NCBI GenBank assembly: GCA_038890615.1
Contig: JAWAFI010000001.1
Span: 227,836-291,835, forward strand
DNA from: Candidatus Anstonellales archaeon
GTDB lineage: Archaea > Micrarchaeota > Micrarchaeia > Anstonellales > J096
Direction: 5' to 3'
Length of the DNA stretch: 64,000 nucleotides
Positions 5,260-51,537 of the stretch are shown piece after piece. A program made the position numbers and the translations under genes. Within the stretch, counting starts at the first letter, position 1. Each line of letters starts with the position of its first letter. The notes beneath the pieces are model-generated. The model had not been told where the DNA came from. It did not search any database and saw only the letters and a program-made list of their open reading frames with translations.

Positions 5260-5755
5260 GCTTTTTTGACTCTGAAAGGAGGAAATCAAGGCATTCCTCC
5301 TTCTTCCCTTTTTTCCTGTTCCACTTGCGCACTATTGCCTTGTATGCATTTGTTCTCTGCTTGATGAGGTTAGGGCTTATGCCCATCCCTTTGAGCTTGA
5401 AGAGGATGCGCGGAAGCAATGGGCAAAGCGCCCTTGGGTGCATGCTTCCATCTGACCTATAGGGGTAAGCCCTGCACACAAGAGGGGCAAAGCTGTGTAT
5501 CATGCAGGTTGTTCCTTTTAAGAATATGCAGGGGTTTGACTTAAGGGCAAGCACGTGCTCATGCATCTGCCCCTTTTCATAGCACTCAAGCACTGTGTCG
5601 TTGTCAAAGGAAAGGAGGCGAAGTGGGACTATTTCGGCAAATGATTCTGGCCTCTTTTTGGCTTTCTGGGCAATCTCAAGCACATCAAAAGAAGTAACTG
5701 TAATAGTATAGGTTGAGCAGCAGAGGGCCTTGCAAAGGGAACATATGCTTGGCAT
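5249..5755 (-). CDS. YkgJ-family putative zinc/iron-chelating protein (CxxCxxCC)
   Basis: N-terminal CSLCKALCC motif plus additional conserved Cys/His; size about 170 aa. Confidence 0.5.
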   Translation of the reverse strand: MPSICSLCKALCCSTYTITVTSFDVLEIAQKAKKRPESFAEIVPLRLLSFDNDTVLECYEKGQMHEHVLALKSNPCIFLKGTTCMIHSFAPLVCRAYPYRSDGSMHPRALCPLLPRILFKLKGMGISPNLIKQRTNAYKAIVRKWNRKKGKKEECLDFLLSESKKLMP

Positions 5756-5784
5756 TTTACCTATTCACCTAATATGCTTTTTAA

Positions 5785-6741
5785 TTGTTATGCGTATCTC
5801 TATCCATGATCTCGCTCATCCCTTTCCTGCTTTCGCTGGCCCTCTCGCTTCTCATCTACCCTAGCGCAATAAGGGCCTTAGAAGAGAGGAAGTTCGTTGG
5901 CTTGGATGTACACAGCAAGCGCTATATACCGGAGGCAGGAGGGATAGTTGTGGTAGTCTGCTTCCTTATCTTTTCCCTCCTTTCAATGGTTTTCTTTGAA
6001 GTGAATGAAACTGCTTACCTTTCAGCAGTGCTTACCATATTGTTCATGTCATTTATAGGGCTTGTTGACAACCTTATGAGCATAAGGCAGTGGCAGAAGA
6101 TGCTTATACCTCTTATAGCAGCGCTCCCGCTTGTGGTGCTGAAAGAAGGGGTTACAACCATGGCCCTGCCATTCATAGGGGCTGTTGACTTTGGGATTTT
6201 CTACACATTCCTGCTGATACCTGTGGGGGTGTCTGTTGCCTCAAACCTAAGCAATATGCTTGCCGGCTACAATGGCCTTGAGACTGGAGTTGGGCTTGTG
6301 ATACTGCTCGCCCTTATGCTTTTCTGCTACATCAATGGATATACAGAAGGAGTGCTCATAGCAGGGGCCTTGGCAGGAGCCCAGCTCTCGCTTTTCATAT
6401 TCAACATCTACCCTGCAAGAGTATTCCCGGGCGATGTAGGCACGCTTACAGTGGGCGCTGCTGCTGCCTCTCTCTCAATCATAGGCAACTTTGAGGGATT
6501 TGCAGCTATGCTTTTCATACCGCATGCTGTTGACTTCTTCATAAAGGCAGCAAACAAATTTCCTCATAGCATAATGCAGGATGAAGTCAAAGATGGAATA
6601 ATAGTGCCGAAGAAGGTCTATGGTTTCACGCAGCTTGCGCTTAAGCTGAAGCCAATGACAGAAAGGCAGCTTGCCTATGCTTTTATTGCAATGGAAATCA
6701 TTGTAGCTCTGGCAGCTTTCGCAGTGTATTTAAAACCGTAA
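5785..6741 (+). CDS. Glycosyltransferase family 4 (MraY/WecA/AglH-type), UDP-GlcNAc:dolichyl-phosphate GlcNAc-1-phosphate transferase
   Basis: Polytopic membrane protein with NMLAGYNGLETG and IFNIYPARVFPGDVGTLTVGAAAA motifs typical of the polyprenyl-phosphate sugar-1-P transferase family. Confidence 0.75.
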   Translation: MLCVSLSMISLIPFLLSLALSLLIYPSAIRALEERKFVGLDVHSKRYIPEAGGIVVVVCFLIFSLLSMVFFEVNETAYLSAVLTILFMSFIGLVDNLMSIRQWQKMLIPLIAALPLVVLKEGVTTMALPFIGAVDFGIFYTFLLIPVGVSVASNLSNMLAGYNGLETGVGLVILLALMLFCYINGYTEGVLIAGALAGAQLSLFIFNIYPARVFPGDVGTLTVGAAAASLSIIGNFEGFAAMLFIPHAVDFFIKAANKFPHSIMQDEVKDGIIVPKKVYGFTQLALKLKPMTERQLAYAFIAMEIIVALAAFAVYLKP

Positions 6742-6774
6742 CACTTTTTAATAACTTATACAACAAAATTAAAT

Positions 6775-29316: not shown

Positions 29317-29318
29317 AA

Positions 29319-29391
29319 TGGGCCCGCCCGGATTCGAACCGGGAATCTTCACCGTGTCAGGGTGACGTCATAGCCATTGGACCACGGGCCC
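29319..29391 (-). tRNA. tRNA-Val (anticodon GAC)
   Basis: Near-identical to the tRNA at 7628..7700 except for the anticodon arm (stem TCACC/GGTGA, loop CTGACAC) and one variable-loop base. Confidence 0.9.
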
Positions 29392-29916
29392 AAAATGATA
29401 AACCCTTACATATATCAAATATTTAAAATCTATGCAGGGGATTGGAATCCAGAAGTAATTTTAAATGACAAATTGATGATTAGACAAACAGGCGATAGAT
29501 TATATGCAACAATTGATAGTTATAAATACTACCATCTTAACAATATTAATCTTAAAGATACAAGTTTAGATATAAAGTATGTATTGGCATTATTGAATTC
29601 TAAAATGATGTCTGCATATTATCTATTAGTTACATTAGAAAAAGAAAGAGTTATGGCACAAACTGATATAGAAACCCTCGAAAAATTACCAATTAAGGAA
29701 ATAGAAAAGGAAAAACAGCAACCCCTCATCAAACTCGTTGACAAAATGCTTTCCCTCAACAAGCGCCTAAATGAAATCGGCGACAAAAAGACAGATGAAA
29801 GAGCAAAAATTGAGGAAGAAATAAAAAAGACTGACGCTGAGATTGATGAGCTCGTTTATAAGATTTATGGCATAACTGAAGAGGAGAAGAAGATCATCGA
29901 AGAAAGTATGAAGTAA
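29392..29916 (+). pseudogene. C-terminal remnant of a restriction-modification-type DNA methyltransferase (TaqI-like target-recognition/C-terminal domain)
   Basis: Very AT-rich. KYVLALLNSKMMSAYYLL and ...TDAEIDELVYKIYGITEEEKKIIEE are hallmark C-terminal MTase motifs. The N-terminal catalytic part is absent, and the ORF start would lie inside the tRNA. Confidence 0.5.
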
Positions 29917-44011: not shown

Positions 44012-44689
44012 ATGAGTTGGGTAGTTATATCCTTAGGAGGCAGCGTGATCAACGCAACAGGAACCCCAAACACCGAGTTTCTCAAGGAATTCGCCAAAAT
44101 GCTCAAGCCTATAAAGCGCAATGTTGCAGTTGTTTGCGGAGGGGGGAAGATAGCAAGGGATTACATAAAGGCAATAATATCACTGGGAAAAAACTACTTT
44201 GCAGCAGACCGCATAGCCATTGAAGAGACAAGGAAGAATGCAATGCTGGTGCAGGAAGCAATAGGGTCAGCGTGCTATCCTAATGTGGTGACAAGCTATG
44301 AAGAGGCGCTCCTTGCATCATCAAAGTATTCCCGCCTTGTAATGGGCGGCATGGTGCCTGGCATAACCACTGATGCCTGCGCAGCAGTGCTTGCAGAGGC
44401 TCTGCACGCAGAGAGGCTTGTGAATGTCAGCAACATAGATGGCGTATATACCTCAGACCCAAAGAAGGACAAGAATGCAAAAAGGATAAAGGAGATGACG
44501 CATGAAAAAATGGTAAAGATGGCCATTGAGCAGGATTTGAGGAGGGCAGGGGAGCATTTTGTGTTTGATTTGCTAGCATGCAAGATAGCTGAAAGGAGCA
44601 ATATAGAGCTTCGCTTTGTAGACAGTAAGATAGGGGCAATAAAGGATGCAATAGAAGGCAAGTCAGCAGGAACGACGGTGAAAGGCTGA
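44012..44689 (+). CDS. pyrH: Uridylate (UMP) kinase, archaeal type
   Basis: VISLGGS...VVCGGGKIARDY...RLVMGGMVPGITTD amino-acid-kinase fold motifs. Confidence 0.8.
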   Translation: MSWVVISLGGSVINATGTPNTEFLKEFAKMLKPIKRNVAVVCGGGKIARDYIKAIISLGKNYFAADRIAIEETRKNAMLVQEAIGSACYPNVVTSYEEALLASSKYSRLVMGGMVPGITTDACAAVLAEALHAERLVNVSNIDGVYTSDPKKDKNAKRIKEMTHEKMVKMAIEQDLRRAGEHFVFDLLACKIAERSNIELRFVDSKIGAIKDAIEGKSAGTTVKG

Positions 44690-45234
44690 TGCTAAAGGAA
44701 AGGAAGAGGCTTCTGGCATATTTGAAGAAAAAGGAGGCAGCAGTTTATAAGGCGGATTTGCTTGGGAGGGAAATAGTGAGGGAATGTGGGTCTGCTATAA
44801 AGGACCTACATGCAGGAAGGGTTGCAGGAGCTGAAAAGAAGAAGGATGGGATTGAAAAGAAGGTAAAGGAGCTGAAAAAGCTTGACCGAAGCGAGTACAA
44901 CATAGCTTTCCAAGAGTACGCAGAGCTTTGCATAATAATAAGCATATACAAGAAAATGAGCATTCCAAGCATCAAAGAAATTGGAGTAAAGGAGGAAAGC
45001 TACATCCTCGGGCTCCTTGATGCAACAGGGGAGATGAAGAGGTACATGTACAACCTTCTTATGAAAGGGGATATTGAAAAGGCAAAGAAGGTTTTTGCTA
45101 TAATGGACGGCCTTTTCAGCGACCTTTCTGAATTTTGCTTCTCTGACCGCATCCTGCCAAACTTCAGGCCAAAGCAGGATGCTTTCAGGATACAGCTGGA
45201 GCAGGCAAGGGCAGAGATGCTAAGGTGGCTCTAA
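44689..45234 (+). CDS. Translin-family protein (tentative)
   Basis: YILGLLDATGEMKRYMYNLLMKGD resembles the translin GVLDLTGELMRLAI...GD segment. Confidence 0.45.
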   Translation: MLKERKRLLAYLKKKEAAVYKADLLGREIVRECGSAIKDLHAGRVAGAEKKKDGIEKKVKELKKLDRSEYNIAFQEYAELCIIISIYKKMSIPSIKEIGVKEESYILGLLDATGEMKRYMYNLLMKGDIEKAKKVFAIMDGLFSDLSEFCFSDRILPNFRPKQDAFRIQLEQARAEMLRWL

Positions 45235-45630: not shown

Positions 45631-46320
45631 TTATTGGCCAACAGACTCAAGAAGACTTGGATAGTTGGGAGGCATATTTTTAAGAAATACCACAACCTCT
45701 AAAGAAGGGTTTATGATGTTGTAGCGGGCTGGCAAACGAAGATAGTGAATTTTTATACCTTCCTCAAATTCTTGGCGGACAATCTTGCCACCTAAGAAGA
45801 CTTGGAGGGTCATCTCCATGTCAGGCTTGACTACTATCCCTTCCATATAAGTGCGCTCCTTATTGTTATCGCGAGCATATGCAGACAGACCTATCATTTG
45901 AAACAATTCTTCTGGACGAAACTTTCCTTTTTCTATAGTAGGTATGGGAAAGAATAATATAGGGTCTATGTTTTCCACCATTATCTTGCCCTTTCTTAAA
46001 TCAAATGAAAGCTTAATCTTTTCTTCTGAAGATACAAACACCTCTCTTTTTTTATCATATATATCAAAAACTGCATACCTACCAGGAAGGACATAAAAGA
46101 TGGTGTGCTGTCTTTTCATATCTTCTGCGAATATAACATAATCTTGGGTTTCAAAACGTATATGTTTTCCATCCATTTTCTCTTCAACTACAACACGATC
46201 CTTAAGGAGCATATCCAGCTGTTTTTTATCAAGCGTATTTTTCAAAATGCGTTTTCCAAAGGGAATTCTTCCTAATTTAGGATAAACAATTTCTTTTTCT
46301 TTAGTAATCATATAAAGCAC
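45631..46320 (-). CDS. Minimal covalent nucleotidyltransferase of the ligase/capping-enzyme superfamily (candidate RNA ligase)
   Basis: Motif I VVEEKMDGKHI (KxDG), motif III-like YAVFDIY, motif IV MEGIVVKPD (EGhVhK), motif V-like GGKIVRQE. No OB domain. AT-rich. Confidence 0.45.
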   Translation of the reverse strand: MLYMITKEKEIVYPKLGRIPFGKRILKNTLDKKQLDMLLKDRVVVEEKMDGKHIRFETQDYVIFAEDMKRQHTIFYVLPGRYAVFDIYDKKREVFVSSEEKIKLSFDLRKGKIMVENIDPILFFPIPTIEKGKFRPEELFQMIGLSAYARDNNKERTYMEGIVVKPDMEMTLQVFLGGKIVRQEFEEGIKIHYLRLPARYNIINPSLEVVVFLKNMPPNYPSLLESVGQ

Positions 46321-46375
46321 CTTTATGTTTATGGATGCAAAGCTTTATTAATATATTCAAACACTTAAATATATC

Positions 46376-46918
46376 ATGAGAAACAAAATGGCTTACTCCG
46401 CTATGAAAAGCAACTTTAGCACTGTCAGAGTGCCAAAAATCCCCTCCGAGCCATTAAATGATAGGGCAATGCTGCTTTTCCTAATAGATACTTGTTATCT
46501 TATAGAATTGTCAAAATCAAGCGTTGGTCTTTACAATTCATTGAAAAATCTTTCTAAGAAAGGAGAGGTAATAATAACAGAAGAAGTGGTGATGGAATTC
46601 CAAAGAAATGCTCAAACAAAGAAAGATGTTAGAAAAAACGATGTAGCAGAGTTGTATAGGGCAATAAACGACAGGATTGTCACAAAAGAAAGAATTTGGG
46701 TTTCCCAAGAGGAGCATGCTAACCTTTCAAACAGAATGAAAGAATGCTCTGAAAAACATAATGAGCGCTTAGGTCAAGCTGATGCTTCTATCATCGTTCT
46801 AGCTGATATCATGAAAGAACTTTATAGCAAGGTACTAATATTTAGCAAAGACAAGGACATAGAAACTCTTGCCCCTCCATCAACAGAGGTTGTTTTTTGC
46901 CATCCATCTTTCATATAA
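46376..46918 (+). CDS. PIN-domain nuclease
   Basis: Acidic residues at PIN positions: LFLIDTCYLI (D), VIITEEVV (E), GQADASIIVLA (D), IFSKDKDIE (D). AT-rich. Confidence 0.5.
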   Translation: MRNKMAYSAMKSNFSTVRVPKIPSEPLNDRAMLLFLIDTCYLIELSKSSVGLYNSLKNLSKKGEVIITEEVVMEFQRNAQTKKDVRKNDVAELYRAINDRIVTKERIWVSQEEHANLSNRMKECSEKHNERLGQADASIIVLADIMKELYSKVLIFSKDKDIETLAPPSTEVVFCHPSFI

Positions 46919-47035
46919 GCCATTACTCAGGAGCTAGTGAAACTAGTTAATAAAATAATTTGGTTGAACAATCTGCAATCTTTTTAATCTCTTCTTTATT
47001 AAACTCCTGAGTTAATAAATCCAATAGGTGAGAAA

Positions 47036-49026: not shown

Positions 49027-49142
<116 letters not shown>

Positions 49143-49147
49143 CTATA

Positions 49148-50203
49148 TTACTTTTTCTCAAAAAGGAGCAAGGTTTCCCTTGCTTTCTTCCTCTCCTTCC
49201 CAATGTGCACAACCCTTTCTGCATAAACTGCTTTCCTAAGCATAAGCCCGATGCTTTCGCTTGCCTCAACAATGCGCTTGTCTACTTCTATTACATTGCC
49301 AGCAATTACTGCGTTGCCCACCACGAGCGCGCATCTGCCCCCTCTTTTCAGAGAGGCCTCTATGCCATGCATCACCTTTTCCATATCACAAAAGTAATCA
49401 GAAACAGCATCAGTTCCTTCTGCCTTTAGGTATGAGCGTATCTTTGTAGAAGGCTCTGCACCAAGAAGGCCTGCCTCCAAGCTGTATACTCTTTGGTAGT
49501 CAATTGCATTTAAGTATGGTGGGGAGGTAAAAACCCAGTCAAACTCCTCTTGGAACCCAAGCATTCTTGCATCGCCCTCAACCACAGATGCCTTGCCTGT
49601 GCTTTTGCTTGCCCTTGCCTCTGCTATGAACCTTTTTGCCTTCCTCCTGAAAACATCCTTTGCAGGAAGGGCGCTCTTCCTTAAATCAGTGCGCAGGACC
49701 CCTCCGTCCTTCACAGCAAGGGAGCACTGCGAAACAGAGCTGAGAAGGGCAAGTAGAAGGATCTCTGCCCCGTCAAACCACTCTTTTGATATTTGCGCCC
49801 TTGCCCTAAGGAAGAAGCCCAAGTTCCTCTTTGGTATTGCTTTTTTTGGCTCCACTATTGCCTCCCATTTCCAGCAGAAGCCCATATCGCAGCAGCCAAC
49901 CCTTGGGATCAGCGCCTCTGCAGCAGAGAGCATATCGTCTGAATAGTTTTTTGTTTTTGCCTGGCCTATGAAAACAGCAAGCGGAAAGGCATCAATACCT
50001 AAAGCGGTTTGGCCATTGAGCTTGGCCCAAAGCGCTGTTGTTCCTGAGCCAGAGAATGGGTCTAATATTGAGCCTCTGGGCTTGAAAAGATCAAGCAGCT
50101 GAGGAGAAAAAGCCTCTTTGTAGTAGAACCAATTGTAGATAGGCAGCTTTTTTGCTCCTTCTGAAGTGAAAAGCTTAGCTATTTCCTTGTTCTTTTCCCA
50201 CAT
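49148..50203 (-). CDS. DNA methyltransferase, probably N4-cytosine/N6-adenine (motif I ... TRD ... motif IV order, alpha-like)
   Basis: DPFSGSGTTAL (FxGxG) then, about 190 aa later, FTSPPY (SPPY). No endonuclease partner is evident. An RNA m2G methyltransferase cannot be excluded. Confidence 0.5.
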   Translation of the reverse strand: MWEKNKEIAKLFTSEGAKKLPIYNWFYYKEAFSPQLLDLFKPRGSILDPFSGSGTTALWAKLNGQTALGIDAFPLAVFIGQAKTKNYSDDMLSAAEALIPRVGCCDMGFCWKWEAIVEPKKAIPKRNLGFFLRARAQISKEWFDGAEILLLALLSSVSQCSLAVKDGGVLRTDLRKSALPAKDVFRRKAKRFIAEARASKSTGKASVVEGDARMLGFQEEFDWVFTSPPYLNAIDYQRVYSLEAGLLGAEPSTKIRSYLKAEGTDAVSDYFCDMEKVMHGIEASLKRGGRCALVVGNAVIAGNVIEVDKRIVEASESIGLMLRKAVYAERVVHIGKERKKARETLLLFEKK

Positions 50204-50576
50204 CCAAGGCCTCCTTTGCAAGCATATCAGCCCTCCTGTTGCGCTCCCTGCTTATCCACTCAAAGCGCACTTCAGCCCCTGCGCAAAGCGAGAGTGCTTC
50301 CAAGTAAAGCTTCTTCAGCCTTGCCTCCTTTACTTTGTACTCCCCTTTGAGCTGTCGCACAACAAGCTGGCTGTCAGCCCTTATTACAACCTCCTTCTCC
50401 TTTAAGGCCCTTGCCCTCTTCAAAGCTTCAATGACAGCCAAATATTCTGCTTCGTTGTTTGTTCGCCTTCCTACATTCTTAGATATCTCTTCTATGATAT
50501 TCCCGCCTTTCCACAAGGCAACCCCTATGCCTGCTTCCCTTCCGTCGCTTGCACCATCAGTGTAAGCATAGAGCAT
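50175..50576 (-). CDS. rnhA: Ribonuclease HI
   Basis: MLYAYTDGAS...NNEAEYLAVIEAL...RADSQLVV...WISRERNRRADMLA carries the RNase H catalytic D/E/D/D pattern. Confidence 0.8.
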   Translation of the reverse strand: MLYAYTDGASDGREAGIGVALWKGGNIIEEISKNVGRRTNNEAEYLAVIEALKRARALKEKEVVIRADSQLVVRQLKGEYKVKEARLKKLYLEALSLCAGAEVRFEWISRERNRRADMLAKEALDVGKEQGNS

Positions 50577-50615
50577 ATAGATATTGTTTAAAAACAAATG
50601 CTATAAACCTATCTT

Positions 50616-51107
50616 ATGGTAGTAGTAAACAAAAGTATCAGGAGGATAAGGATTGAGATATCTATAGTCGCAGTAATAGTTGCCTTCACTATAGTGCTGC
50701 TGAACAATTTTGTCAAATTGCCTTTCCCTATATTTGCTGGCTCATTGGGAGCTGTAGCAGTATTGTGGGTTGCAGGCTGGTTCATCTCTGATTGGTACGC
50801 AAAAACCTTCATATTAGAGCTAAGGGAAGACGATGTAAGGTATACTAAGGGGGTTATTGCAAGGAAGCAGATAACGATACCTCTTGAAAAGATAATAAAC
50901 CTAAGGGTTGATGAAAGGGGGCTGCTTGACAGGATTCTAGGGGAATGCACAATATCCATAGACAGCGCAGGCACAAGCGAAGTAGAGATAGTAATAACAG
51001 AGGTGCTCAGGGAAAAAGCTGAGGAGTTCAACCAAGAGCTAATGCTTAAGATGAAGAACATTGGAAAGGAGATGAAAAAGAAGGGAAAAAAGGTTGATGA
51101 GGCATAG
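50616..51107 (+). CDS. Membrane protein with a bacterial-type PH domain (bPH_2/YdbS-like)
   Basis: Two N-terminal TM helices then DDVRYTKGVIARKQITIPLEKIINLRVDERGLLDRILG. Confidence 0.6.
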   Translation: MVVVNKSIRRIRIEISIVAVIVAFTIVLLNNFVKLPFPIFAGSLGAVAVLWVAGWFISDWYAKTFILELREDDVRYTKGVIARKQITIPLEKIINLRVDERGLLDRILGECTISIDSAGTSEVEIVITEVLREKAEEFNQELMLKMKNIGKEMKKKGKKVDEA

Positions 51108-51537
51108 GATTGAAGGAAATAAGGTAAAAAAGCTTGAGAGGTTAGGGGCAGGCATAAAAGAGGGGGAAGCTATTGTGCTCCATCCTGTTGAGGCATGCTA
51201 CTTTGCAAGAGAAATAGGCATAAGCAAGGAGGAAGCCCTTGAGGAGGTAAAAAGGCTTGGGCTGATTGATGTGCTTAGGGTCTACGAGGACTTAAGGGCA
51301 AAAGGCTATGTGCTCATGTTCCTTGGGGATGACATAAGGGTCCTTAGGAAAGGGTTCAGGAGAGGAGAGGACAGGTCATACGCAATAATCAGGGTTGTGA
51401 AGCCACAAGAAGAGACCTCATGGGAAGAGGTAAGCAAGTTTGTTGCATATGCAGCAGGGCTAAGGAAAAGCGCAGTGCTTGCTATTGTTGGGGATAAGAT
51501 TCATTATATAGGGCTTGGCACAATAAGGTTTGATTAA
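51094..51537 (+). CDS. endA: tRNA-splicing endonuclease (short catalytic subunit)
   Basis: RVYEDLRAKGYVLMFLGDDIRVLRKG...SYAIIRVV matches the EndA catalytic domain. Confidence 0.7.
   Translation: MMRHRIEGNKVKKLERLGAGIKEGEAIVLHPVEACYFAREIGISKEEALEEVKRLGLIDVLRVYEDLRAKGYVLMFLGDDIRVLRKGFRRGEDRSYAIIRVVKPQEETSWEEVSKFVAYAAGLRKSAVLAIVGDKIHYIGLGTIRFD

Follow-up and report, generated by a model that had tools for sequence, protein, structure and literature searches.

Conserved pairing of a VapC-like PIN nuclease with a minimal RNA-ligase-family protein in Micrarchaeota

PIN-type nucleases linked to RNA ligases have been reported on two earlier occasions. In the HARP-Rnl3 pair, a small PIN-like metallonuclease lies beside an ATP-dependent RNA ligase of the covalent nucleotidyltransferase superfamily; the co-occurrence and co-localisation of the two genes have been described recently (Seshadri & Gopalan, 2025; PMC12153264) and were first noted by Matelska et al. 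(2017; PMC5499597). The roles discussed for this pair are processing and circularisation, repair and a toxin-antitoxin function, the last of which was judged unlikely because Thermococcus grows normally without the ligase (PMC12153264). The other linkage is bacterial and joins a PIN_3 (COG1569) protein to an ATP-grasp RNA ligase, an ATPase and an HNH protein; according to the account of it in PMC5499597, Burroughs & Aravind proposed it as a conflict system, in which the ligase would neutralise nuclease damage. Here we describe a pair of this general kind in a Candidatus Anstonellales genome (Micrarchaeota, DPANN), the genome of a tiny symbiotic archaeon. The window, meaning the whole stretch of DNA that was analysed, is 64,000 nucleotides long. 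The ligase-like gene on the minus strand and the PIN gene on the plus strand are divergent, and the features of the locus are as follows.

45631..46311, minus strand: minimal ATP-dependent RNA-ligase-family protein, 226 aa, nucleotidyltransferase domain only (PF09414, AF2, Foldseek)
46168..46185, minus strand: ligase motif I, EEKMDG (E43, E44, K45, D47 and G48 invariant in 30 homologues)
45826..45843, minus strand: ligase motif IV, EGIVVK, E157-K162 (E157, G158, V160 and K162 invariant in 30 homologues)
45775..45789, minus strand: ligase motif V region, GKIVR, G175-R179 (K176 invariant; G175 and R179 at least 90% conserved)
46312..46375, no strand: divergent intergenic region, 64 bp, A/T-rich (read from sequence)
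46376..46918, plus strand: VapC-like PIN nuclease, 180 aa (PF01850, AF2, Foldseek)
46487..46489, plus strand: PIN catalytic Asp D38, DTCYL motif (invariant in 14 and in 33 family members)
46595..46597, plus strand: PIN catalytic Glu E74 (invariant in family alignments)
46781..46783, plus strand: PIN third acidic residue D136, G-x-[GA]-[DE]-A-S-I motif (column always D or E)
46850..46858, plus strand: PIN fourth acidic cluster D159-K-D161, S-x-D-x-D motif (D159 and D161 invariant)

The longest ligase ORF (45631-46320, minus strand; 229 aa) opens with a GTG at 46320, but the ATG at 46311 is the likelier start because a GGTG lies 7 nt upstream of it and the resulting 226-aa protein is 100% identical to the database model P0001, an 'RNA ligase family protein' of Candidatus Anstonellales. 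The database model of the PIN protein has 176 aa and uses an alternative start at 46388. The two genes are thus separated by 55 bp from ORF to ORF, as an earlier note on this DNA had reported, by 64 bp with the ligase ATG and by 76 bp with both database starts. The immediate flanks are also as that note described them (a translin-like protein, a small membrane protein and MscL), and core genes surround the pair within 5 kb: deoxyhypusine-synthase-like, UMP-kinase-like and translin-like genes, 5S rRNA and a tRNA-intron endonuclease.

The ligase-like protein is a nucleotidyltransferase domain standing alone, as had been suggested from its sequence. Pfam detects PF09414 (RNA_ligase; 37.4 bits, cut-off 27) and no second domain, and the same profile is matched by 30 of 30 homologues, none of which carries an accessory domain. 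The ligase/capping-enzyme motifs claimed earlier (EEKMDG, EGIVVK and GK at 175-176) are all present and, at the residues listed above, invariant or nearly so across these homologues, as are the motif III/IIIa positions E63/D64 and F82/D83; the homologues further share an N-terminal Y-P-K-P-x-R-F-P and a C-terminal N-x-I-D-P motif. The AlphaFold (AF2) model (pLDDT 90, pTM 0.87) shows about 28 extended residues before the core and ends about 25 residues past motif V in a low-confidence tail. K45, which sits at a strand-loop-strand turn in this model, is predicted to be the AMP-accepting lysine. The best fold matches in both the PDB and the viral library are RNA ligases, not DNA ligases or capping enzymes: Foldseek places NgrRnl, T4 Rnl2, Pab1020 and REL1 on top with a probability of 1.0 and TM scores of only 0.4-0.5, and the best viral-library match reaches a TM score of 0.62.

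How this protein relates to the known ligase families is best judged by its domain content. With the Rnl2/Rnl5 enzymes (T4 Rnl2, NgrRnl, DraRnl, REL1), which provide its best nucleotidyltransferase fold matches, it has PF09414 and the motif set in common, but the fold similarity stays at the modest TM scores given above, and no solved ligase in the PDB was matched by sequence, whether the single sequence or the family profile was used. Moreover, it lacks both the C-terminal helical domain of Rnl2 and the N-terminal OB-like domain of Rnl5 (NgrRnl/DraRnl), which define those families (PMC11040149). Rnl3 enzymes of the Pab1020/MthRnl type, whose domain layout is likewise described there, comprise N-terminal, dimerisation and C-terminal domains (~380 aa), in contrast to the 226 aa here. 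A truncated Rnl3 was considered but is not supported, since PF18330 is found in no member of the family and the sole signal is a weak alignment of TIGR01209 over the motif I stretch (12.5 bits, cut-off 136.9). The earlier description of the protein as unusually small holds in so far as it is a domain-only protein of 226 aa, but stand-alone PF09414 proteins of ~205-265 aa are widespread in bacteria and also occur in phages. These are likewise domain-only and carry the motifs, but their identity to the ligase here is 20-30%, the bacterial ones have a ~43-aa insertion after motif I, and the PIN family described below was beside none of them in 57 bacterial loci examined. A viral origin was also rejected: the family was not found in viral contigs, where only distant ligases of 24-28% identity turned up.

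The PIN protein matches PF01850 (28.9 bits, cut-off 23.6), and its AF2 model has a pLDDT of 88 with a low-confidence tail at residues 1-30. The top Foldseek matches are the VapC-type PINs PcrIIC1, VapC20, VapC2, PAE0151 and PAE2754, and the best 25 fold matches are all PIN domains, nearly all of them VapC-type. The acidic positions recognised in the earlier note are borne out by alignment, with D38, E74, D159 and D161 invariant and D136 replaced only by E; N129, R131 and G133, which precede D136, are conserved, the first two invariantly so in alignment A4. Across the family the Pfam matches are weak and fall on PIN, PIN_4 and PIN_12. The family is very small (65 of 1.84 billion representatives), and its members were found by locus-based HMMs together with a full representative search, a word-index protein search having given almost nothing. 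A search against PADLOC-DB 2.0 yielded a weak partial match of the PIN to the candidate PDC-M07B (E 6e-6, residues 79-167) and no match for the ligase. The likeness to VapBC extends to the PIN fold, the acidic tetrad and the two-gene format. However, VapBC is an antitoxin-toxin operon with a DNA-binding VapB, whereas the pair here is often divergent or convergent and the partner is an enzyme whose active site appears intact from its motifs. A classical VapBC was accordingly rejected, as there is no VapB-type antitoxin ORF and the neighbour of the PIN is the ligase.

The pair resembles HARP-Rnl3 in its logic, in its often bidirectional arrangement and in being patchy among archaea. HARP itself, however, is a PIN_5 protein (PF08745) known as a protein-only RNase P, and an identity of the PIN with HARP was rejected because the PIN_5 profile matches 0 of 33 family members at E <= 0.1 and no HARP structure occurs among the best 50 PDB fold matches. 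Further, the HARP hosts listed in PMC12153264 exclude the Micrarchaeota, to which the pair belongs, and, unlike HARP, the PIN here is often fused to giant proteins. The PIN_3 system likewise links a PIN to an RNA ligase, but there the ligase is of the ATP-grasp type and extra genes are present, in contrast to the lysyl-AMP nucleotidyltransferase and the strict two-gene core of the present pair. Overall, neither the PIN nor the ligase belongs to the families of these two precedents.

Linkage of the two genes is tight, reciprocal and independent of orientation. The co-occurrence check called for by the earlier note found the pair adjacent in the majority of related genomes and metagenome contigs, whether the look-up began at the ligase or at the PIN. 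Among species genomes, 15 of 20 assessable loci have the PIN directly next to the ligase homologue (L001-5, L009-11, L013-17, L023 and L033). On metagenome contigs it is adjacent in 28 of 34 loci, or 28 of the 30 that are assessable, and is absent from only 2 fully flanked loci; look-ups started from PIN proteins found an abutting ligase in all 8 informative cases. The linkage persists at ligase identities down to ~33%, while the flanking genes are unrelated between clades and the two genes may be divergent, tandem or convergent, with gaps of -11 to ~160 bp. Divergent and convergent arrangements mean that co-transcription is not obligatory. Nor is the adjacency a coincidence, given that so small a PIN family stands beside one rare ligase family. 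The ligase can exist alone, since six homologues with complete flanks (L008, L019, L020, L022, L106 and L130) have no PIN. The two families also share an evolutionary history: their divergences correlate across 20 pairs (Mantel r = 0.68, p <= 2e-4), a correlation that plain vertical co-inheritance would also give. The PIN is the faster-evolving partner, with a mean pairwise identity of 0.25 versus 0.40 for the ligase. No PIN-ligase fusion protein was found. A conserved third gene was sought and rejected, as a HIT hydrolase abutting the PIN and an RtcA 2-3 kb away are each confined to a single, different sub-clade. At one locus (L090) a HicAB pair lies next door.

With the genes co-occurring widely, the ligase fold predicted and the PIN acidic residues conserved, a conserved two-gene system is supported. 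The earlier suggestion that this system could be undescribed stands for the Micrarchaeota pair, of which no published description was found in the literature searched, but not for PIN-RNA-ligase linkage as a kind, for which the two precedents exist (PMC12153264; PMC5499597).

In many relatives, the PIN is the C-terminal domain of a larger protein, the longest having 3,693 aa, and these giant fusions always adjoin the ligase. Their N-terminal regions are highly variable and mostly unrelated, carry no signal peptide or transmembrane segment, and gave no match in PADLOC-DB 2.0. Secreted polymorphic toxins were considered as an explanation and rejected, given the lack of such segments and the fact that variation lies in the N-termini and not at the toxin end.

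The low GC content that gave the impression of an AT-rich islet is real, yet it is a property of the source genome and not of the module, which in other genomes is without low GC. Measured against the 66 window ORFs of at least 100 aa, the two genes have a GC of 0.36 (mean 0.458, sd 0.033) and a GC3 of 0.33-0.34 (mean 0.505, sd 0.052; ~3 sd below the mean), ranking second and third lowest. The 9-bp inverted repeat pointed out earlier is present (46925-46933 / 47004-47012), but it is weak, with two copies arising in 7 of 100 shuffles and a fold z-score of -1.27, and it is specific to the window. A mobile element or bounded island was therefore rejected, direct and inverted repeats around the pair being at chance level and the low GC not recurring elsewhere. 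No hallmarks of mobile elements or defence islands were seen near the pair, whose neighbours are housekeeping genes; no conserved non-coding RNA candidate was found beside it, and a search for an empty site via the translin-like flank returned no relatives among metagenome contigs.

We favour, with a probability of roughly 0.6, the reading that the pair is a functionally coupled RNA 'cut-and-reseal' module specific to Micrarchaeota. Since the genes stay adjacent across dozens of related genomes, it is most likely that the two proteins work together to cut and rejoin RNA. The PIN would act as a metal-dependent endoribonuclease whose cuts leave a 3'-OH and a 5'-phosphate; in two-metal PIN catalysis the leaving group is the 3'-O (PMC5499597). 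Its 226-aa partner would be an active ATP-dependent RNA ligase pared down to the bare nucleotidyltransferase domain, in which K45 would be adenylylated, pass AMP to the 5'-phosphate end of the RNA and allow this end to be joined to the 3'-OH. As PIN-type ends would be the very ends joined by the ligase, no end-healing enzyme should be needed. The ends are probably presented by the structure of the RNA itself or by the PIN protein, because the ligase has no accessory domain for substrate binding. The isolated nucleotidyltransferase domain of T4 Rnl2 cannot adenylylate an RNA 5' end by itself and needs the C-terminal domain (see also PMC11040149), so the domain-only enzyme may be a poor ligase; it may also have another activity. 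As to purpose, two possibilities seem about equally likely. A specific RNA could be matured, excised or circularised in the way suggested for HARP-Rnl3, or the PIN could be a nuclease effector and the ligase the enzyme that undoes its damage, as an antidote or in a step of recovery.

Each of these purposes can be developed into a fuller, rival explanation, and both rivals are put forward only tentatively. In one, the PIN would serve as a toxin or an effector of defence, which many relatives carry joined to long, variable regions for sensing or regulation, and the ligase would be a dedicated enzymatic antidote that reseals cleaved host RNA, allowing reversible growth arrest or recovery after attack. 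The nearness of the PIN fold to VapC toxins, its faster evolution (identity 0.25 against 0.40), the mostly unrelated N-terminal fusions of up to 3,693 aa and an orientation-independent module that moves between unrelated neighbourhoods are all in line with this, as are GC and GC3 values ~3 sd below the window mean, which suggest lateral acquisition, the weak PDC-M07B match and the HicAB pair beside L090. The neutralisation of PIN_3 and HNH nucleases by an RNA ligase, as relayed in PMC5499597, offers a precedent proposal. Against it, however, the pair sits among housekeeping neighbours and lacks a VapB-type antitoxin as well as mobile-element and defence-island hallmarks, the ligase has no PADLOC match, the family was not found in viral contigs, and signal peptides and transmembrane segments are missing from the giant fusions; the toxin-antitoxin role was, moreover, judged unlikely for HARP-Rnl3 on the strength of the Thermococcus knockout (PMC12153264). 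The other, no less tentative, is housekeeping RNA maturation, in which the PIN would trim a stable-RNA precursor (e.g. a C/D-box sRNA, tRNA or rRNA fragment) and the ligase would circularise or join the product, making the pair the Micrarchaeota counterpart of the pathway proposed for HARP-Rnl3. That linkage follows the same logic and is typically bidirectional too (PMC12153264), the RNA ends would be chemically compatible (PMC5499597), and the core-gene setting of the pair here fits as well. The HIT and RtcA neighbours also point this way, but only in single sub-clades; the PIN is not a HARP (no PIN_5 match, none in the best 50 folds), none of the Rnl3-specific domains is present in the ligase, the pair seems patchily distributed and, here, of foreign composition, and no candidate for a conserved non-coding RNA was found next to it.

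It appears quite improbable that the ligase-like protein is an adenylyltransferase for some other target, capping RNA 5' ends by adenylylation or AMPylating and neutralising the PIN; MNT antitoxins AMPylate and neutralise HEPN toxins. Such a role would suit a bare nucleotidyltransferase domain, the textbook defect of isolated Rnl2 nucleotidyltransferase domains in RNA 5'-adenylylation and the conserved Y-P-K-P-x-R-F-P and N-x-I-D-P motifs, to which no role is assigned. However, we know of no protein AMPylation by an enzyme of the ligase superfamily, and invariance extends to motifs IV and V, whose roles lie in the later steps of ligation. One Rnl3 enzyme, as cited in PMC12153264, does adenylylate strongly and ligate weakly, in favour of such a role. 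That the two genes are unrelated and became neighbours by chance in one lineage is very improbable and strongly disfavoured: some ligase homologues lack a PIN and no operon is obligatory, but the linkage has outlasted three orientations and complete turnover of the flanks, was seen in all 8 look-ups made from PIN proteins and extends down to ~33% ligase identity.

The cut-and-reseal reading admits a bolder version, which we regard as unlikely at present. The pair could be a reversible switch that works by RNA breakage and is complete in itself, or a pathway of RNA excision and circularisation made of proteins only, where the PIN, either by itself or as the cutting end of giant cytoplasmic proteins, cleaves at specific sites and recruits the minimal ligase to rejoin the ends. 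If true, the DPANN Micrarchaeota alone would have this 'cut-and-paste' system of two proteins for RNA editing or dormancy, and the HARP-Rnl3 partnership would have been re-invented in them independently, by convergence. To our knowledge, an experimental explanation of PIN-RNA-ligase linkages has never been given. The Micrarchaeota pair constitutes a third, independent pairing, with another PIN clade, another, domain-minimal ligase and genome-reduced DPANN hosts, which speaks for 'metal-dependent cut plus ATP-dependent reseal' as a functional unit that recurs, rather than the quirk of one lineage. It is also the simplest version, with ~180 aa and ~226 aa and no accessory domains, and therefore an attractive system for working out the role of such pairs, to which the giant PIN fusions add a further layer. 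Moreover, the 226-aa protein is a candidate very small RNA ligase for biotechnology.

Finally, the PIN gene is bounded by intergenic regions of 64 bp and 117 bp. A sigma-70 scan of the 64-bp divergent region (46312..46375) stayed at chance level, the sigma-70 model not being applicable to archaea, and the region contains a TATA-like TTTATTAATATATT element at ~46344-46357 that is a candidate promoter element.

Where the earlier note had proposed an AT-rich pair of a KxDG nucleotidyltransferase and a PIN nuclease as a possible new two-gene system, two divergent open reading frames are indeed present:

45631-46320, minus strand: ORF of the minimal RNA-ligase-family protein (the ligase), divergent from the PIN ORF
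46376-46918, plus strand: ORF of the VapC-like PIN nuclease (the PIN), divergent from the ligase ORF

For the ligase, the ATG at 46311, 7 nt 3' of a GGTG, is the likelier start judging from the sequence, and gives a 226-aa protein 100% identical to P0001, a publicly annotated 'RNA ligase family protein' of Candidatus Anstonellales archaeon (Micrarchaeota, DPANN) encoded on a 558-kb contig. The 64-bp A/T-rich spacer between this ATG and the PIN gene contains a TATA-like TTTATTAATATATT element, which could be a putative promoter for both genes.

Central to the proposal of a two-gene system is the pairing itself, the decisive test, and its outcome was positive from both the ligase and the PIN side. 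Among Micrarchaeota-type loci found via the ligase in species-representative genomes, the PIN is directly adjacent at 15 of 24; the other nine comprise four with complete flanks and no PIN, four that end at a contig edge just upstream and one (L021) with only a weak PIN_12-like neighbour. The same adjacency holds at 28 of 34 ligase loci on metagenome contigs, a few of which duplicate loci of the other sets; two others (L106 and L130) have complete flanks without a PIN, and four were incompletely assessable. Of nine look-ups started from PIN representatives, very divergent and giant ones included, the ligase abuts the PIN in all eight with sequence beyond the gene, the ninth contig being too short to inform. 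Reciprocal adjacency in species genomes, metagenome contigs and PIN-side look-ups thus supports a conserved two-gene system. The arrangement depends on the clade, being divergent in the window and its closest relatives, tandem (PIN then ligase) in a second clade, and convergent where the PIN is part of a large fusion. Gaps range from overlaps to ~160 bp, and the flanking genes are unrelated from clade to clade. Moreover, over 20 loci, pairwise identity between the ligases is correlated with that between the PINs (Mantel r 0.68, p <= 2e-4), with the PIN diverging faster than the ligase (mean identity 0.25 vs 0.40). No PIN of this family was found at bacterial PF09414 loci, and the ligase family was absent from viral contigs.

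Several loci deserve separate mention. L019, on a contig binned as Elusimicrobia, carries a Micrarchaeota-type ligase without a PIN, which could reflect mis-binning or transfer, and the Micrarchaeota genome MAG258 holds two ligase copies, one without a PIN and the other cut by a contig end (L008 and L018). A HIT-family hydrolase gene directly adjoins the pair in one sub-clade, and in two related contigs only, an RNA 3'-phosphate cyclase gene (RtcA, PF01137) lies 2-3 kb away:

L004:4792-5265, HIT-family hydrolase
L005:4922-5350, HIT-family hydrolase
L011:523-927, HIT-family hydrolase
L016:4332-4724, HIT-family hydrolase
L033:4341-4871, HIT-family hydrolase
L086:14242-15210, RtcA
L087:10161-11123 (the same as L107), RtcA

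Since HIT enzymes include 5'-adenylate-removing enzymes, this neighbour may be relevant, or may be plain sub-clade synteny.

The ligase belongs to the nucleotidyltransferase superfamily and to Pfam PF09414 (RNA_ligase), which matches it above cut-off (37.4 bits) and is matched by 30/30 aligned homologues; accessory-domain families had no match in these 30. Invariant or nearly so in the homologue alignment are motif I (E43, E44, K45, D47, G48), E63, D64, F82 and D83, motif IV (E157, G158, V160, K162), K176 of motif V, and the N-terminal Y-P-K-P-x-R-F-P and C-terminal N-x-I-D-P motifs. For the AlphaFold2 model built from this alignment (pLDDT 90, pTM 0.87), the top Foldseek matches in the PDB are all RNA ligases (NgrRnl, T4 Rnl2, Pab1020, PpaRnl, MthRnl and REL1), with probability 1.0 but TM-scores of just 0.38-0.49, and DNA ligases and capping enzymes rank far below. 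RNA ligases are likewise the best matches in a viral structure library (TM up to 0.62), one being a 204-aa phage protein, while sequence searches with the protein or the family profile found no solved ligase. A further domain joined to the nucleotidyltransferase core is what defines the RNA-ligase families Rnl1-6 (PMC11040149); given that such a domain is absent here, the protein stands within the superfamily and PF09414 but outside Rnl2, Rnl3 and Rnl5. Its earlier description as an unusually small stand-alone domain is right about the domain, but the small size alone is unremarkable, as PF09414 proteins made of this domain alone are no rarity: a ~261-aa family occurs widely among bacteria, Chloroflexota, Bacteroidota and Myxococcota included. 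Two homologues of 312-320 aa (P0030 and P0032) carry a ~95-aa insertion with several Cys/His directly after the N-terminal Y-x-K-P-x-R-F-P, and some gammaproteobacterial genomes have two different stand-alone PF09414 paralogues (~216 and ~260 aa) 1.3-2 kb apart:

L024:3660-4325 and 5671-6468, paralogue pair
L037:4067-4717 and 5791-6759, paralogue pair
L047:3796-4449 and 5629-6441, paralogue pair

The PIN is matched by PF01850 above cut-off, and its AlphaFold2 model (pLDDT 88, residues 1-30 disordered) has VapC-type PIN domains as best PDB fold matches (PcrIIC1, VapC20, VapC2, PAE0151 and PAE2754). All family members keep D38, E74, D159 and D161, and each has D or E at position 136, within a G-x-[GA]-[DE]-A-S-I motif; N129 and R131 are likewise conserved. 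The family is very small: when 1.84 billion representative proteins were searched with its profile, only 65 members were found at E <= 1e-3. These members weakly match Pfam PIN_12, PIN_4 and PIN, and never PIN_5. Many have the PIN as the C-terminal domain of a larger protein, 300-3,693 aa long; the regions N-terminal to it are mostly unrelated among themselves and yielded neither Pfam domains nor signal peptides nor transmembrane segments. The giants (1,100-3,693 aa), predicted to be cytoplasmic, have the PIN at the extreme C-terminus and a convergent minimal ligase next to each:

L086:452-11533, giant PIN protein
L087:4001-9109, giant PIN protein
L010:3087-7583, giant PIN protein
L003:6643-9960, giant PIN protein
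L127:1002-4466, giant PIN protein

The active sites of both proteins are under purifying selection, and both enzymes are therefore presumably active, as predicted from these conserved sites. In two-metal PIN catalysis the leaving group is the 3'-O (PMC5499597). From this chemistry, a PIN cut would leave 3'-OH and 5'-phosphate ends. ATP-dependent ligases join just such ends, so that the ligase could rejoin what the PIN had cut, and a kinase or phosphoesterase step would be superfluous. Given this compatibility and the presumed activity, we read the pair as a cut-and-reseal module in which the two proteins would cooperate on an RNA substrate, with a probability of roughly 0.6. The ligase has no substrate-binding domain, and the ends might plausibly be presented to it by the PIN or by the RNA's own structure.

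As for the purpose such cutting and resealing would serve, two roles appear about equally likely. The pair may mature, excise or circularise one particular RNA, as suggested by its housekeeping neighbours, the absence of an antitoxin and of a defence-island context, and the precedent of HARP (a PIN_5 protein-only RNase P) with the ligase Rnl3. Equally, the PIN may be a nuclease effector and the ligase its enzymatic antidote; the VapC toxins as best fold matches, the fast evolution of the PIN and its variable N-terminal fusions, the movement of the module between gene neighbourhoods, its foreign-looking composition in this genome and its weak similarity to a candidate system in PADLOC all point in this direction.

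Linkage of PIN domains to RNA ligases is of a kind already known but unexplained. Matelska et al. described the co-occurrence of PIN_5 with the TIGR01209 ligase, and PIN_3 genes of which some accompany an RNA ligase of the ATP-grasp type in what is proposed to be a conflict system (PMC5499597). Seshadri and Gopalan found HARP and Rnl3 together in ~89% of HARP-positive genomes, the genes often adjacent and bidirectional, and suggested as possible functions processing with circularisation, repair, or a toxin-antitoxin role (PMC12153264). The present pair would work similarly to both, yet its PIN is neither PIN_5 nor PIN_3, its ligase neither Rnl3 nor ATP-grasp, and its Micrarchaeota hosts set it further apart. 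No report of a PIN with a minimal ligase in DPANN was found in the literature searched; the pair offers an independent, minimal and directly testable instance of PIN-ligase coupling.

In the window, the pair lies among ordinary genes, and the translin-like protein, small membrane protein and MscL named earlier as its flanks are all there:

44689-45234, plus strand: translin-family protein (PF01997, E 2e-8), immediately after a UMP-kinase-like gene
46925-46933 and 47004-47012: 9-bp inverted repeat ACTCAGGAG/CTCCTGAGT in the 117-bp PIN-mscL spacer
49028-49142, plus strand: 5S rRNA gene, right of the pair
49148-50221, minus strand: apparently solitary N6/N4 DNA methylase
50175-50597, minus strand: RNase H
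51094-51537, plus strand: tRNA-intron-endonuclease-like gene

It is uncommon for archaea to encode translin-like proteins, and a translin-family gene beside the pair is not conserved at related loci. Nor is the inverted repeat, which has no other copies in the window, reaches two copies in 7/100 shuffles and has a fold z-score of -1.27.

The AT-richness remarked on earlier is borne out, the two genes being compositionally odd for this genome: their GC is 0.36 against 0.458 ± 0.033 (mean ± sd) for the 66 ORFs in the window that encode 100 aa or more, and their GC3 0.33-0.34 against 0.505 ± 0.052. Low GC is not a trait of the module at related loci elsewhere; the islet here is more likely a mark of lateral acquisition. 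The window ORF with the lowest GC (0.32) is a different one, at 29377-29916 on the plus strand; it abuts a tRNA-Val gene (29318-29392, minus strand) and may, as a further case, have been acquired laterally at a tRNA site.
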